In this document: piece by piece, positions 56,364 through 60,926 of the stretch | Layout: every line of letters starts with the position of its first letter | How positions within the stretch are numbered: the stretch's first letter is position 1 | Sequence record: PV659873.1 | Origin: Escherichia phage WPEC1 | Reading direction: 5' to 3' (one strand) | Length of the DNA: 64,000 nt | Notes under the pieces: model-generated | Told to the model about the DNA's origin: nothing | Database searches by the model: none | Seen by the model: the letters and a program-made list of their open reading frames with translations, nothing else | Made by a program: the position numbers and the translations under genes

Positions 56364-56966
56364 TTATGGACATTCATACCATTCTTTTTTACCACCGAAG
56401 GCCATCACCACATCACAAATATCCAGACCCGCTTTACCTACACCATATGCTTTCAGCTTCCATTCCCCATCTTCACGAACCAAGGAGGCCACGTGGCAGA
56501 TTGTGTTGCCAGCTACTTCAGGAGCCAGGAAGTCAAAATCCAGAATTTCCACATTACGTTCGGAGTCAAAGATTTTAAGCATACCTTCAGAAGCATGACC
56601 AAAACGTTTCAGACCTGTATCATCATCAATGGTCAGAACAAAGGCAATCTCTTGTGCATCAGGAGAGATTTTAGCCAGAGTAATATCAATCTGCTCCATG
56701 CTGCCAGTCCCATCACGAACATCGTCGCCAGCGAAAGTAGAACGTTCAGGATCAAACTTGTTAGCATAGCAAACCAGGTGACGTGCAGACAGCATTTCAG
56801 GATTGCCAGCAGCATTATGACGACAAACCAGTGCACTTACATCCAGATCCAGTTTAGAATTAGATTTCCAAGAGAATTCCAGGCGCAGTTCTTTCAGAGC
56901 CGGAGCAACTTTCTTCAGGGAAATTTTTTCGCTAGAGCCTTTTTTCAGGGAAATTTTATCAGTCAT
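56364..56966 (-). CDS. terD: TerD-domain protein
   Basis: block-by-block match to TerD as recalled: ISLKKGSSEKISLKK, DLDVSALV, AGDDVRDGTG...IDITL, FVLTIDD, GEWKLKAYGVGKAGL. Confidence 0.8.
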   Translation of the reverse strand: MTDKISLKKGSSEKISLKKVAPALKELRLEFSWKSNSKLDLDVSALVCRHNAAGNPEMLSARHLVCYANKFDPERSTFAGDDVRDGTGSMEQIDITLAKISPDAQEIAFVLTIDDDTGLKRFGHASEGMLKIFDSERNVEILDFDFLAPEVAGNTICHVASLVREDGEWKLKAYGVGKAGLDICDVVMAFGGKKEWYECP

Positions 56967-56981
56967 CTTTTGTCTCCTCTA

Positions 56982-57251
56982 TTATTTAAGTGTAATACCA
57001 GTTACAGTCAATTCTACTTCCAAAAGCTTAGATGTGTTTTGGATTGTTACTAATTGTGCATGATGGTTTAGTTCTACAGCAGAATAATCATTTTCCCCAT
57101 CATCTACTTTTAAATAAACAATGACTTCACTAAGGTCTAAACCATTTTCGTCAAATGCATTTTCATAGACGAAAGTATCTCCTACATCCAAATCTTTAAT
57201 GGTAAGGCATCGTTTATTTACTTTTTGCTCATCAATTTCGAAGTTTAACAC
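56982..57251 (-). CDS. small protein, paralog A of Ter-associated pair
   Basis: shares VGDTFVY...GLD...VELTVTGITLK with 58273-58569. Confidence 0.45.
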   Translation of the reverse strand: MLNFEIDEQKVNKRCLTIKDLDVGDTFVYENAFDENGLDLSEVIVYLKVDDGENDYSAVELNHHAQLVTIQNTSKLLEVELTVTGITLK

Positions 57252-57480
57252 TTCTTCCTCCTAATGTTATCTCCGGTTTGTCTATACGAAGAATTATAGC
57301 ATTTTCATTTTCTTTGTCAACCCATTCTTCATAATCGGGCCATACATGAATCTCTACTCTACTTACAATATCTTCCATCCGCACAGTCCCAATGAAGTAT
57401 TCTTTGAGACTGCGCATAATGAAAGCTTCTCTCTCGCGCCAATAATTTTCTACGACTTGAGAGGCAAGCTCGTCGATCAT
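57232..57480 (-). CDS. hypothetical protein
   Basis: 82-aa ORF. Confidence 0.35.
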   Translation of the reverse strand: MIDELASQVVENYWREREAFIMRSLKEYFIGTVRMEDIVSRVEIHVWPDYEEWVDKENENAIILRIDKPEITLGGRSVKLRN

Positions 57481-58271
57481 TTTTTAGCACCTACTTTAAC
57501 AACCCACTCTCCGAACTCTTCAGATAAGAGTTTGTCATAAAGCTCTGAATCTGTCAAGTCTAAATCTTTAATGCCAATAAAACCAACATTATCGTAAGCA
57601 TTTGCCAGTTCTTTCAGGAAGCCAAACTTCTCATTACCAACGCCAACCATGAACCAATAAATAGGTTTATTCTTATTCTCTTCAATAAGACGACGAACAG
57701 CACTAGGATCACCATTCTCACCGTCTGTCTGGAAGAATACAACACCAGGAGTAACGTCAGCACTTGGTTCAGATACAGCTACAACCTTTTCACGCTCTAC
57801 AGATACTGTTTCAGTTTTACCAAGCAGACGATTAAAGAAGCCTTTCTTTGGAGCCTGCTCTTGTACCACTTGTTTAGTGGTAACATATTTGGTAACAGTG
57901 CCAAAATACTCATCATAGATATCTGCCATTACAGGAGCGTAATTTGTTCCACCTCCAATGCGAACATTACGCATACACTTACCAACATAATCATCGTAAA
58001 CGTCTGCTGTTGCTGGAGTAAGCTCTTGAGAACTCGTATTGAAGGCCCACATATCAATCTGTTCATTATCATCGAACAGCATACCAAAAGGAAGCAGTTT
58101 ACCTACAAAATCACTCACTACCCCACGAGCATATAGACCATGCATACTACCAGAAATATCTAGCGCACAAGCTACACGAAGAACAATCTTACCTTCGTTC
58201 AGGTTCTTATTCTTTTTCAGAGAGAAAGCAAGGTTTTCTTGACGTTTTTTCAGGCTGATTTTCTCGGACAT
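57477..58271 (-). CDS. von Willebrand factor A domain protein, TerF/TerY-type
   Basis: MIDAS motif ALDISGSM (DxSxS); N-terminal MSEKISLKK shared with TerD. Confidence 0.65.
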   Translation of the reverse strand: MSEKISLKKRQENLAFSLKKNKNLNEGKIVLRVACALDISGSMHGLYARGVVSDFVGKLLPFGMLFDDNEQIDMWAFNTSSQELTPATADVYDDYVGKCMRNVRIGGGTNYAPVMADIYDEYFGTVTKYVTTKQVVQEQAPKKGFFNRLLGKTETVSVEREKVVAVSEPSADVTPGVVFFQTDGENGDPSAVRRLIEENKNKPIYWFMVGVGNEKFGFLKELANAYDNVGFIGIKDLDLTDSELYDKLLSEEFGEWVVKVGAKK

Positions 58272-58569: not shown

Positions 58570-59107
58570 TTTTGAAGCCTAAATCGTAAGCTTCTTTAGT
58601 GATCTTTTGTAACTCACTTATAGGAAGTGTTACAAGAGGATCATCTTCTTCAATTTCCATCTTGTCATCTTCTGTTTCAATGAGAGTATTATGCACTTTG
58701 TGATAAGGGTTGTCAACACGTTTAAACTTATTCTTTTCTGTGCTGAAAAAACAATCTGGATCTTCTTCACCATCACCCCAACCTTGATTAGGATCTCCGT
58801 CAGATTGTTCTGTAGGAATTTCACCTGTAAAATACTCTTCCAGCACCATAGCGATACCGTCCCTTGGATTCGAGGAATGCATCAAATCACAAACCTTACT
58901 CCAGTCCATAGCCCATTCAAATCGTTCACGAACGCCATTTTCATCCTCCTTCCCAGAGAAAACACAGCCGTAGCTATCATAGTTGCCATACATTTCTTCA
59001 ATAACAACACCGTCCTTCAAAAGAAAGAGGTAGCAAGGCGATCCGTCGAAAGAAGTAGAAAGGGCAGCTTTGCCCGATTCTTTGCACAAGAAACTAAAAC
59101 AACCCAT
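58544..59107 (-). CDS. hypothetical acidic protein in Ter module
   Basis: 187-aa ORF. Confidence 0.4.
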   Translation of the reverse strand: MGCFSFLCKESGKAALSTSFDGSPCYLFLLKDGVVIEEMYGNYDSYGCVFSGKEDENGVRERFEWAMDWSKVCDLMHSSNPRDGIAMVLEEYFTGEIPTEQSDGDPNQGWGDGEEDPDCFFSTEKNKFKRVDNPYHKVHNTLIETEDDKMEIEEDDPLVTLPISELQKITKEAYDLGFKIGRGGMRV

Positions 59108-59505
59108 TACAAACCCTCCTTCAGATTATCAAGAGCTACAGTGGTTTCACAAAATTCTCCATAAGCTTTATGATGTTCCAGAAAAGCTTCGGGTCCGCCC
59201 CAATCATTATCTTGTGTATTCCAGCCATCAATAAAAGCATCTTCAATGATTGTGATAAGTTCTTGTCGAGTCAACGTAATGGTATCAGGTTTCTGTGTAG
59301 TTTCCACACGGAAGCCTGGCTCTTTGTAAAAACCTGTAGTTACAATGGCTTCTAATTCTTCTGCATCGCAGAGGTAATAACCACAAAGATAACACCAACC
59401 ATCGTCATCTTTCATTACTTCATAAACTTCACCACTGGTTAACTTGGTGAAAAGAGTAGGATCTGTTACTGTTAGTTTTAAACGAATACCTGTTGGATTA
59501 TACAT
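59107..59505 (-). CDS. hypothetical protein in Ter module
   Basis: 132-aa ORF. Confidence 0.4.
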   Translation of the reverse strand: MYNPTGIRLKLTVTDPTLFTKLTSGEVYEVMKDDDGWCYLCGYYLCDAEELEAIVTTGFYKEPGFRVETTQKPDTITLTRQELITIIEDAFIDGWNTQDNDWGGPEAFLEHHKAYGEFCETTVALDNLKEGL

Positions 59506-59670
59506 CTTCTTCCTCCTCTAAAATATGAAACCCGTAATTACAATAATCCTGAAAGGTTTCGTGTGCAAGATCTTCTATATCCTCTTGAGACATATCATCT
59601 TCAATTTCGATATCCACAACCTCATTGCATCCACACCAAGCAGTTTCAATATTCACTCGTAATATTTTCA

Positions 59671-59868
59671 TTACTCCTCCTCTTCATTGAAGTCAATATC
59701 TGCAAGGAGTTCGAATTTACGGAAGTTACGACAACCTTCATAAATATAACAATCACGACAAACTGCTAGAACGCTTGGGGGATATATGCCTCCCATCGGT
59801 GCGAATCGTTTTTCGTCATCATAACGGACACCAATGTCTTCATCGATCATATAGATACGGATTCTCAT
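59671..59868 (-). CDS. small Cys-containing protein
   Basis: 65-aa ORF abutting TelA-like gene. Confidence 0.35.
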   Translation of the reverse strand: MRIRIYMIDEDIGVRYDDEKRFAPMGGIYPPSVLAVCRDCYIYEGCRNFRKFELLADIDFNEEEE

Positions 59869-60926
59869 TTACCAAGCCCTCGTTTCACAGCAGCTACCAT
59901 CCCGTCTTCCAGAGATTGAACTTCATTAATATAATCAACACGAGCAGCACGGGCTTCCGTATTGATGCGGTTAGTTTCTTCCAACATCTTAACCAAGTTT
60001 TCCTGATCGTGACGCAGAGTTTCAATATCCAACACTTGACGGTTAGCCAGTGCTGCTGCTTCGATCTGATTCTGTGTGGCAAGATCGCTACCCAGTTTAA
60101 TTGCCAGGTTAAATTCATCAAGAACGTTATTCTGCGTCTCTGCTGCTTTCATTTGACGTAAGCTCTCGATATACATTGAGAAGTTAGCAGAGTAAGCAGG
60201 AATAACATTATTTACTATGTTACGCGCAGATCGCATTAAGCTTGCAGAAACTTTTTGCATACCTTGTACACGCGGTCCCATTTGGACACACAGTAGGCGC
60301 AATGCTTTTAAATCTGCAATACGAATCTCCAGAAGATCCAAAGTATCTCGGATCACTTGTCGCTGTTCTACTGCATCTTCTGGAAGAGCAGCCAAAGCTT
60401 GTTCTTCTTTTTCATAGGTTGCTGTTAGAAGCTGCATATCTCGGTTCAAACTTGCAGCATATTGTCCAATAGCTTGATGTAGCTTTTCAAGATATACCAA
60501 GGAATCTTCTTCTTTGCGAATATCCATTTGAAGGTTCTTTACCAACTCTTCAATACGGTTATTAACATTATCAAACTCCCCAAACAGGTCTTCTTTCATA
60601 CCCATAACTTTTTTAATGAGTTTAGTAATACCCTTGCTTTGTTTAATAGAGTTTGGATCAAGTTGTTTTGCCTGTTTAATCAAAGCTGTGAGTCGTTCAC
60701 TCATCTGATCGCCTTGATTACTACGTTGATGTTTTAATACCTCGGCATTCAAGGAACGCAAGGTTGTTCCTGCCTCTGCCCCAATCTCTTCGATCTCTTG
60801 TCGGGTCATAGAAGGCAAAACTGGAACTTCTTGCGGTGCCGCTGGTGCATAAACAGGACTGGCATCTAACACGCTTGGAGCGAATACAGATTTACTTGCA
60901 TCTGTTGTTGCAGCAAATACGCTCAT
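59865..60926 (-). CDS. TelA/KlaA-like (toxic anion resistance family) coiled-coil protein
   Basis: 353 aa, long helical/coiled-coil regions; assignment from overall resemblance and Ter context. Confidence 0.45.
   Translation of the reverse strand: MSVFAATTDASKSVFAPSVLDASPVYAPAAPQEVPVLPSMTRQEIEEIGAEAGTTLRSLNAEVLKHQRSNQGDQMSERLTALIKQAKQLDPNSIKQSKGITKLIKKVMGMKEDLFGEFDNVNNRIEELVKNLQMDIRKEEDSLVYLEKLHQAIGQYAASLNRDMQLLTATYEKEEQALAALPEDAVEQRQVIRDTLDLLEIRIADLKALRLLCVQMGPRVQGMQKVSASLMRSARNIVNNVIPAYSANFSMYIESLRQMKAAETQNNVLDEFNLAIKLGSDLATQNQIEAAALANRQVLDIETLRHDQENLVKMLEETNRINTEARAARVDYINEVQSLEDGMVAAVKRGLGK

Follow-up and report, generated by a model that had tools for sequence, protein, structure and literature searches.

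Ter systems are widespread in bacteria, pathogens included, and have been tied for decades to resistance against tellurite, colicins and phages. Their exemplars comprise terZABCDEF of the IncHI2 plasmid R478, the Ter island of E. coli O157 and telA/klaB of RK2, and the bacterial genes have reportedly been analysed as a linked gene network by Anantharaman, Iyer and Aravind in 2012. Here we describe a run of genes on the minus strand of a 64,000-nucleotide stretch of DNA from Escherichia phage WPEC1 (sequence record PV659873.1), referred to below as the window, in which an earlier note had recognised a TerD-domain protein, a von Willebrand factor type A (vWA) protein and a TelA-like protein as a three-component Ter module. 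Judged by gene comparison, the run is a real and conserved module of a known kind with a predicted function, and it forms the downstream half of a Ter system that spans ~10.7 kb and is nearly complete. That phages of this group carry Ter genes has been published before; what we add is a small protein that is a predicted partner of the Ter proteins.

Cellular Ter confers resistance to both phages and colicins, and plaques are larger on a ΔterC strain of Klebsiella (PMC12054061). The same report cites Whelan 1995 for the loss of phage inhibition upon insertion into terZ, terC or terD. TerC has also been linked experimentally to Zn/Mn resistance (PMC12054061).

For phages, Iyer et al. 2021 described Ter operons, some complete and some abbreviated, in jumbo phages and in 'related smaller' ones, proposed superinfection exclusion, and assigned the making of a nucleoside-derived signal to the phosphoribosyltransferase (PRTase) and HAD components of Ter (PMC7824862). 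The Klebsiella phage ZCKP1, a Phapecoctavirus, carries four tellurite-resistance-related genes for which superinfection exclusion was suggested (PMC6141743), gp172, gp173 and gp178 of phi92 were labelled Ter proteins by RAST (PMC4690881), and Klebsiella phage phiKp34 has terC, terF-vWA, two terD genes and telA (PMC8386662). Gut jumbo phages transcribe their TerD genes strongly; these genes lie beside a PspA-like gene, and a Ca2+-ATPase is encoded by those phages too (PMC12880540). Ter clusters have further been reported from Pseudomonas phiPsa374-like phages, Caulobacter jumbo phages and Acinetobacter phage ME3, and GenBank records and PHROGs already carry Ter annotations for the genes treated here. 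We found no experimental report on any phage Ter gene in the literature.

The phage that carries the present run is virulent and belongs to the genus Phapecoctavirus in the subfamily Stephanstirmvirinae. With bacterial Ter its cluster shares the TerD, TerF-type vWA, TelA, TerC, ComF-like PRTase_3 and HAD families as well as a membrane and metal theme. It differs in residing on a virulent phage and in having one TerD in place of the TerZ/A/D/E/F paralog set. Furthermore, whereas bacterial TerF is a TerD-vWA fusion, the phage vWA domain stands alone, and no TerB was detected among the cluster genes examined. The phage TerD is only ~30% identical to enterobacterial TerD and has a partly degenerate Ca2+ motif, and the phage cluster holds extra genes, namely those for two small β-rich proteins, a 187-amino-acid (aa) protein, an 82-aa protein, a SprT-like protein and a macro protein.

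Ter proteins and the extent of the cluster

The run occupies positions 56364-60975 on the minus strand and consists of ten tightly packed genes, and every open reading frame (ORF) described in it before was recovered in place. Across this region, identity is 100% to Escherichia phage WPEC6 and 96-98% to ~60 other phAPEC8-like phages; phage ZCKP1 is ~98% identical to the window there. The features that carry the argument are the following:

59865..60975, minus strand: telA, 370 aa in intact relatives; in the window an ORF at 59865-60926 of 353 aa with an internal Met start
58273..58551, minus strand: small-B, a protein of 92 aa, 1 nt upstream of the vWA gene; phrog_11278, E=5.8e-46
57477..58271, minus strand: vWA-TerF-like protein, 264 aa; Pfam PF10138
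57293..57320, minus strand: σ70-type promoter match, TTGACA-16 nt-TATAAT with an extended -10 TG, 12 of 12 consensus positions
56982..57251, minus strand: small-A, a protein of 89 aa, 15 nt upstream of TerD; phrog_11278, E=4.5e-44
56364..56966, minus strand: TerD-domain protein, 200 aa; Pfam PF02342
56327..56346, minus strand: GC-rich hairpin with an 8-bp stem and a GAAA loop, after the TerD stop codon

Profile hidden Markov model searches bore out the three Ter assignments, all of them above the Pfam cut-offs. TerD matched PF02342 with E=1.5e-28 and 100 bits (cut-off 25.3) over profile positions 3-177 of 187, the vWA protein matched PF10138 with E=8.9e-38 and 130.9 bits (cut-off 29.4) in two stretches parted by an insert, and TelA matched PF05816 with E=2.7e-33 and 115.9 bits (cut-off 30) over positions 13-327 of 332. 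TelA also belongs to phrog_5890, 'tellurite resistance' (E=1.4e-134, profile positions 18-372). TerD matches solved TerD structures in the Protein Data Bank (PDB; 2KXT, E=1.1e-15; 3IBZ, E=2e-14), while neither the vWA protein nor TelA has a sequence relative there.

The metal ion-dependent adhesion site (MIDAS) of the vWA protein, of which the DxSxS motif had been reported as intact, is complete: D38-x-S40-x-S42 is joined by T109 and D183, and all five residues are invariant in an alignment of 8 divergent phage homologues. The insert that splits the profile match comprises ~45 residues (about residues 125-172). An N-terminus previously called TerD-like proved to be so in one respect and not in another. 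Its sequence MSEKISLKK...FSLKK resembles MTDKISLKKGSSEKISLKK of TerD (pairwise E=3e-4), the 8-mer SEKISLKK is common to both proteins, and a double (I/V)SLxK...SLxK motif is kept at the N-terminus of the vWA homologues of all lineages examined. A vestigial TerD domain was rejected, as the Pfam TerD model matched neither the whole protein nor the isolated N-termini with E up to 10. Since the TerD model does not match and only ~30 residues precede the vWA domain, the protein is not a TerF-type fusion, and its N-terminus is a short motif. Homologues of this vWA-TerF protein were found by tblastn in 218 phage records, which include Pseudomonas phiPsa374-like, Caulobacter, Brevundimonas, Rhizobium and Streptomyces phages.

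The TerD protein was compared with TerD of Klebsiella, whose Ca2+-binding motifs we take to be DxD and the 13-residue GDN(R/L)TG(E/A)GDGDDE. The DLD motif and the terminal Glu are retained in the phage protein. In this lineage the 13-residue acidic motif lacks three residues and ends in SME instead of DDE (GDDVR---DGTGSME), whereas DDE is retained in the TerDs of CcrColossus and phiPsa374. Owing to the deletion and the SME substitution, Ca2+ binding by the phage TerD is not to be assumed.

The TelA coordinates given by the earlier note, 59865-60926, identified the right family but not the whole gene. Similarity to all complete genomes ends at 60975/60976, inside the telA ATG, and the alignment shows ATG in WPEC6 opposite TAG in the window exactly at this point. 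The 353-aa ORF is thus a shortened reading of the 370-aa gene, since a join of fragments removes the first 2 nt of the ATG. As the window is a join of assembly fragments, the upstream half of the cluster is hidden from view in it.

We therefore describe the full cluster from intact relatives (WPEC6, SKA64 and phi92). In the direction of transcription, its upstream part runs HAD, PRTase_3, macro, a 73-aa gene, TerC, three unknown genes, SprT-like and TelA. In Phapecoctavirus, TelA is followed by 65-, 57-, 132- and 187-aa genes, small-B, vWA, an 82-aa gene, small-A, TerD and a Hydrolase_2 lysin. The PRTase_3 is ComF-like and of the Ter type (Pfam E=2.3e-41) and TerC is equally clear (E=4e-40). 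TerC is the only membrane protein of the cluster identified by Pfam; a scan for membrane segments covered the TelA-to-TerD proteins, all ten of which are acidic and free of such segments. Accordingly, the three-component module had been recognised correctly but was incomplete, as SprT-like, TerC, macro, PRTase_3 and HAD genes lie upstream of it in intact genomes. There, TerD, TerC, TelA and vWA are linked with PRTase_3 and HAD as in the bacterial gene network, and of this set the window holds TelA, vWA and TerD only. The cluster adjoins anaerobic ribonucleotide reductase genes in intact genomes.

The phage Ter system is conserved throughout the phAPEC8/phi92-type myoviruses (Stephanstirmvirinae). 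Gene order is the same in phi92, and the recognised Ter components are 47-81% identical between Phapecoctavirus and this phage: TerD 81% (to gp172), TelA 78.5% (to gp178), TerC 71%, vWA 66%, PRTase 65%, HAD 49% and macro 47%, with 76% for the 187-aa protein and 62% for small-B. The module ORFs are intact in more than 120 genomes. A compact order TelA, vWA, TerC, TerD occurs in the Otagovirus phiPsa374 and the Colossusvirus CcrColossus, in contrast to Stephanstirmvirinae, where TerC and TelA are parted by four genes (the three unknown ones, then SprT-like). The macro protein (WPEC6, locus L002, 23479-25453) has a 39%-identical homologue in phiPsa374 (L012, 430-2876), close to the Ter genes of that phage and adjoining a nicotinamide phosphoribosyltransferase. 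This neighbourhood hints that the PRTase/HAD/macro part may handle molecules of the nicotinamide adenine dinucleotide (NAD+) or ADP-ribose type.

From telA to small-A, neighbouring genes overlap by 1-20 nt or stand 1 nt apart, and TerD follows 15 nt after small-A, a packing as in an operon. The σ70-type promoter match lies ~40 nt upstream of the small-A start codon and is the only perfect one in the 64-kb window, where 0.05 would be expected by chance. SKA64 carries the identical sequence, and a similar element, TTGACT...TAAAAT, stands immediately before TerD in phi92. At the other end, the hairpin marks the end of the Ter run. No clear T-run follows its stem on the coding strand, so that terminator activity of the hairpin is uncertain. 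A further promoter-like site (56326-56298) precedes the lysin gene within the 98-nt gap between TerD and the lysin.

A small β-rich protein family beside the vWA gene

Two proteins of ~90 aa had been described as paralogs, each encoded immediately upstream of one Ter gene, and both statements hold. Small-A and small-B are 31% identical over 89 aa (BLASTP, E=7e-15) and fall into the same PHROG, and they precede TerD and the vWA gene, respectively, at the distances given above. Only the start of the second gene needs revision: the extent 58273-58569 was that of the maximal ORF with a TTG at 58569, whereas annotated relatives start at the GTG at 58551, giving 92 aa. Small-B is 62% identical to gp174 of phi92, which likewise lies directly upstream of the vWA gene of that phage.

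Members of the family were found in 126 records, all of them of Stephanstirmvirinae-like phages; Phapecoctavirus has two copies, whereas phi92-like phages have one. A profile of the family matched no ORF of phiPsa374 or CcrColossus, so that the small gene beside vWA in Stephanstirmvirinae is absent from these two phages; an 84-aa gene upstream of vWA in phiPsa374 was rejected as a member by the same profile. Exhaustive HMMER searching yielded ~12 divergent relatives, each a standalone protein of 87-93 aa. It also returned giant repeat proteins (He_PIG, DUF11, ankyrin), through many short partial stretches with summed scores, and these were judged spurious.

Linkage to the vWA gene is strict. 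The small gene stands directly beside vWA-TerF in five of five divergent metagenomic contigs (L007 to L011), which represent four layouts, and in phi92. Its order relative to its neighbours is vWA-small-TerD in L007, L008 and L011 and small-vWA-TerD in L009 and L010. TelA lies upstream wherever the contig reaches that far, accompanied in L011 by TerC, and on the downstream side there is a Hydrolase_2 lysin, in some cases preceded by a Band_7/SPFH (stomatin/flotillin-like) gene. This latter gene was seen between TerD and the lysin at 2095-2574 of L007 and at 8959-9879 of L011 (Pfam E=7.8e-17 in L011). In a rough tree, the clades of the small family track gene position, and Phapecoctavirus is the group in which both positions are occupied.

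Structure prediction of the small protein alone, which had been proposed as a check, gave a confident β-rich model. AlphaFold2 on an alignment of 18 sequences returned small-A with a predicted local distance difference test (pLDDT) score of 86.1 and a predicted template modelling (pTM) score of 0.78, as five short β-strands and one short helix; with an alignment of 8 sequences the model was unusable (pLDDT 36). Foldseek found no significant match to the model in the PDB, the best E being 0.17 with template modelling (TM) scores below 0.5. Its weak, non-significant neighbours were RipD/NlpC-P60, the β-domain of an MscS-like channel, ribosomal protein L2 and FeoA. The likeness to SH3-like and other small β-barrel domains is thus non-significant, and no membership can be claimed. 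An Ig-like β-sandwich was rejected, there being no such Pfam domain and no Ig-like fold match. In a viral structure library, the model matched only uncharacterised small phage proteins, with TM scores up to 0.70.

Comparison of the loci gives good support to the small protein as a predicted partner of the Ter proteins. A more specific arrangement is conceivable, in which small-B would dock onto the vWA protein and small-A onto TerD as dedicated subunits of a phage Ter complex, and the (I/V)SLxK...SLxK motif of the vWA protein, mimicking the first strands of TerD, would be part of the same docking code; we offer it as a speculative proposal that is rather unlikely to hold as a whole. To the description of phage Ter genes, the present comparison adds the small family, its strict linkage to vWA and its two copies in Phapecoctavirus, the motif at the N-terminus of vWA, the degenerate metal motif of TerD and the putative small-A/TerD promoter. 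None of these six features is mentioned in the publications on phage Ter genes that we consulted.

Candidate functions of the phage Ter genes

Because cellular Ter restricts phages and colicins, the most likely role of the phage genes is superinfection exclusion together with protection of the envelope. The phage Ter proteins would alter the envelope or ion state of the infected cell in such a way that rival phages and colicins are blocked before burst, a reading to which we give slightly less than an even chance. Host RNA polymerase would transcribe the module early or in mid-infection, a timing that we infer from its location in the replication-gene block and from the perfect σ70 promoter before small-A/TerD. 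With TerC as the organising centre, the soluble proteins would come together beneath the inner membrane in a complex that depends on metal. TelA would provide this complex with a helical scaffold, the MIDAS site would enable the vWA protein to connect its partners, TerD would act as a cation-binding module, and the small proteins would be adaptors binding the vWA protein, TerD or both. The resulting change in envelope or ion state would shield the infected cell from rival phages and colicins.

Several observations argue for this reading: the invariant MIDAS residues, the identical gene order in phi92, the recurrence of the TelA-vWA-TerC-TerD core in unrelated phages and the breadth of vWA homologues across 218 records. 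It is further supported by the constant position of a small gene beside vWA, the overlapping genes, the lack of transmembrane segments in the encoded proteins and the unique σ70 promoter, as well as by the membrane-scaffold genes of the Band_7/SPFH type that adjoin TerD in some relatives. Other points weigh against it. The Ca2+ motif of TerD is degenerate, which leaves Ca2+ binding uncertain, and the binding of the small proteins to vWA or TerD is a prediction from gene comparison. Synteny within one subfamily could be inherited and not functionally constrained, and the putative promoter and hairpin are consensus matches only. Finally, no defence model of PADLOC matches any of the 10 proteins of the run (E up to 0.01).

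The module might instead serve the phage's own cycle, by stabilising the membrane and balancing divalent cations (Mn2+/Ca2+/Zn2+), which could supply metal-dependent phage enzymes or maintain an energised membrane up to programmed lysis, so that the module would in effect time lysis or prevent it from occurring prematurely. In this lineage the Hydrolase_2 lysin always comes after the Ter run, in some cases separated from it by a Band_7/SPFH gene, which would fit this reading; the link to the lysin is missing, however, in phiPsa374 and CcrColossus, which are unrelated but share the Ter core, the hairpin and a separate promoter-like site stand between TerD and the lysin, and the run holds neither a holin nor a spanin. 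The explanation would also accord with the link of TerC to Zn/Mn resistance (PMC12054061), with the high transcription of jumbo-phage TerD, its PspA-like neighbour and the Ca2+-ATPase of those phages (PMC12880540), and with the anaerobic ribonucleotide reductase genes beside the cluster. We regard this explanation as somewhat unlikely.

Counter-defence is an improbable third explanation. Here, the PRTase_3, HAD and macro proteins would produce or break down a nucleotide-like or ADP-ribose-derived molecule, which TerD, vWA and TelA would sense or sequester, blunting host immune signalling or NAD+ depletion; alternatively, the phage proteins would act as a decoy of host Ter. The presence of PRTase_3, with its strong profile match, and of HAD and macro genes in the same cluster of intact relatives speaks in its favour, as do the macro homologue near the Ter genes of phiPsa374, beside a nicotinamide phosphoribosyltransferase, and the nucleoside-derived signal attributed to the Ter PRTase and HAD components (Iyer et al., PMC7824862). 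The enzymes are, however, absent from the shorter Ter cores of phiPsa374 and CcrColossus, so that the TelA-vWA-TerC-TerD core works without them, and no defence or anti-defence model matched. The decoy version meets a difficulty of its own: E. coli K-12 MG1655 was the isolation host of many of these phages, and to our knowledge E. coli K-12 has no Ter island, so that a decoy would be without a target there.

Inherited baggage, an island of host origin that persists by descent and does little for the phage today, is very improbable, and non-functional inheritance seems already disfavoured by the conservation pattern: although the function is only predicted and several of the small genes between the Ter genes differ from clade to clade, an identity of only ~30% to enterobacterial TerD argues against recent capture, identity between genera is 71-81% for TerD, TelA and TerC as against 47-49% for HAD and macro, the MIDAS residues are invariant across lineages, the Ter core recurs in unrelated phage families, and the ORFs have stayed intact in all those genomes.

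Whether superinfection exclusion with envelope protection or another of these roles applies, a virulent coliphage carries a streamlined Ter system of one TerD, one vWA, one TelA and one TerC with predicted metabolite-making enzymes. Close relatives are grown on E. coli K-12, which offers a clean genetic handle on the Ter complex, on its envelope effect and on the blocking of rival phages. If the docking of small-B and small-A were true, the phage would provide the first tractable system for the assembly of TerD, vWA, TelA and TerC and for the function of Ter, a question open since the 1970s. The predicted small partner protein and the putative strong small-A/TerD promoter are concrete starting points.

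Assembly joins and neighbouring genes

The window is not colinear with any complete genome. It consists of blocks that are each 100% identical to WPEC6 and that have changed order and orientation, with breakpoints at 9830/9831, ~19092-19245, 60975/60976 and within 60976-63060. The last interval is a chain of ~155-nt and ~80-nt pieces drawn from scattered WPEC6 sites, several of which are one segment repeated in tandem with 1-2 mismatches. These lengths match 2k+1 and about k+1 at k=77, and the interval has the look of a concatenation of short fragments from an assembly graph. On this comparison, two ORFs, 60975-61193 and 61447-62541, are chimeric artefacts of the joins. Insertion of a mobile element, considered as the origin of the shortened telA and the ORFs of 60975-62541, was ruled out by the scattered WPEC6 provenance of the pieces. 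A repeat of ~78-83 nt, present in dozens of copies at 143-152 kb of WPEC6, occurs at several of the window breakpoints (copies at 9825-9912, 61286-61370 and 62978-63138), and this dense short-repeat region probably caused the fragmentation of the assembly.

The remaining genes of the run and the adjacent lysin gene are:

59671..59868, minus strand: acidic protein of 65 aa, overlapping telA by 4 nt; phrog_24000, no Pfam match
59498..59671, minus strand: very acidic protein of 57 aa, isoelectric point (pI) 4.05; phrog_1997
59107..59505, minus strand: protein of 132 aa; phrog_14200 at residues 67-132
58544..59107, minus strand: acidic soluble protein of 187 aa, immediately upstream of small-B; phrog_14928, E=2.2e-125
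57232..57480, minus strand: protein of 82 aa; phrog_22387; the 3' part of the gene holds the putative small-A/TerD promoter
55744-56265, minus strand: Hydrolase_2 (SleB-type) lysin, E=1.8e-17

No protein of the run matched PADLOC-DB v2 or NCBIfam. The 187-aa protein, for which searches of Pfam, NCBIfam and PADLOC gave no match, is among the best conserved of the run, being 76% identical to gp175 of phi92 and 65% identical to the ORF at the same position in L009, and it may be a further unrecognised component of the module. In the 132-aa protein, a C-terminal domain of ~60 aa recurs downstream of telA in related phages; its homologues are gp176 of phi92 (50%) and the ORFs after telA in L009 and L010 (62-68%). 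The 57-aa protein has a weak match to DUF7167 (E=7.5e-5), just under the Pfam cut-off. For the 65-aa protein no homologue was found in phi92 or the divergent loci. The 82-aa protein is specific to Phapecoctavirus and likewise has no homologue in phi92 or the divergent loci.

The flank of TerD is variable. Compared with phi92, only Phapecoctavirus has the 82-aa gene and small-A between vWA and TerD, while in phi92 a 200-aa gene (gp171; L006, 11788-12390) follows TerD, with no Phapecoctavirus counterpart at that place.

The module had also been placed next to four glycosyltransferases and a lysin. All four glycosyltransferases are annotated as such in GenBank, but by Pfam two lie at about the threshold, one is marginal and one has no match. 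The adjacent lysin, on the other hand, is supported by its Hydrolase_2 match. Its N-terminus is strongly hydrophobic (mean hydropathy 1.94 over residues 6-24) and its pI is 10, which suggests a signal-peptide or signal-anchor endolysin that could be exported without a classical holin.

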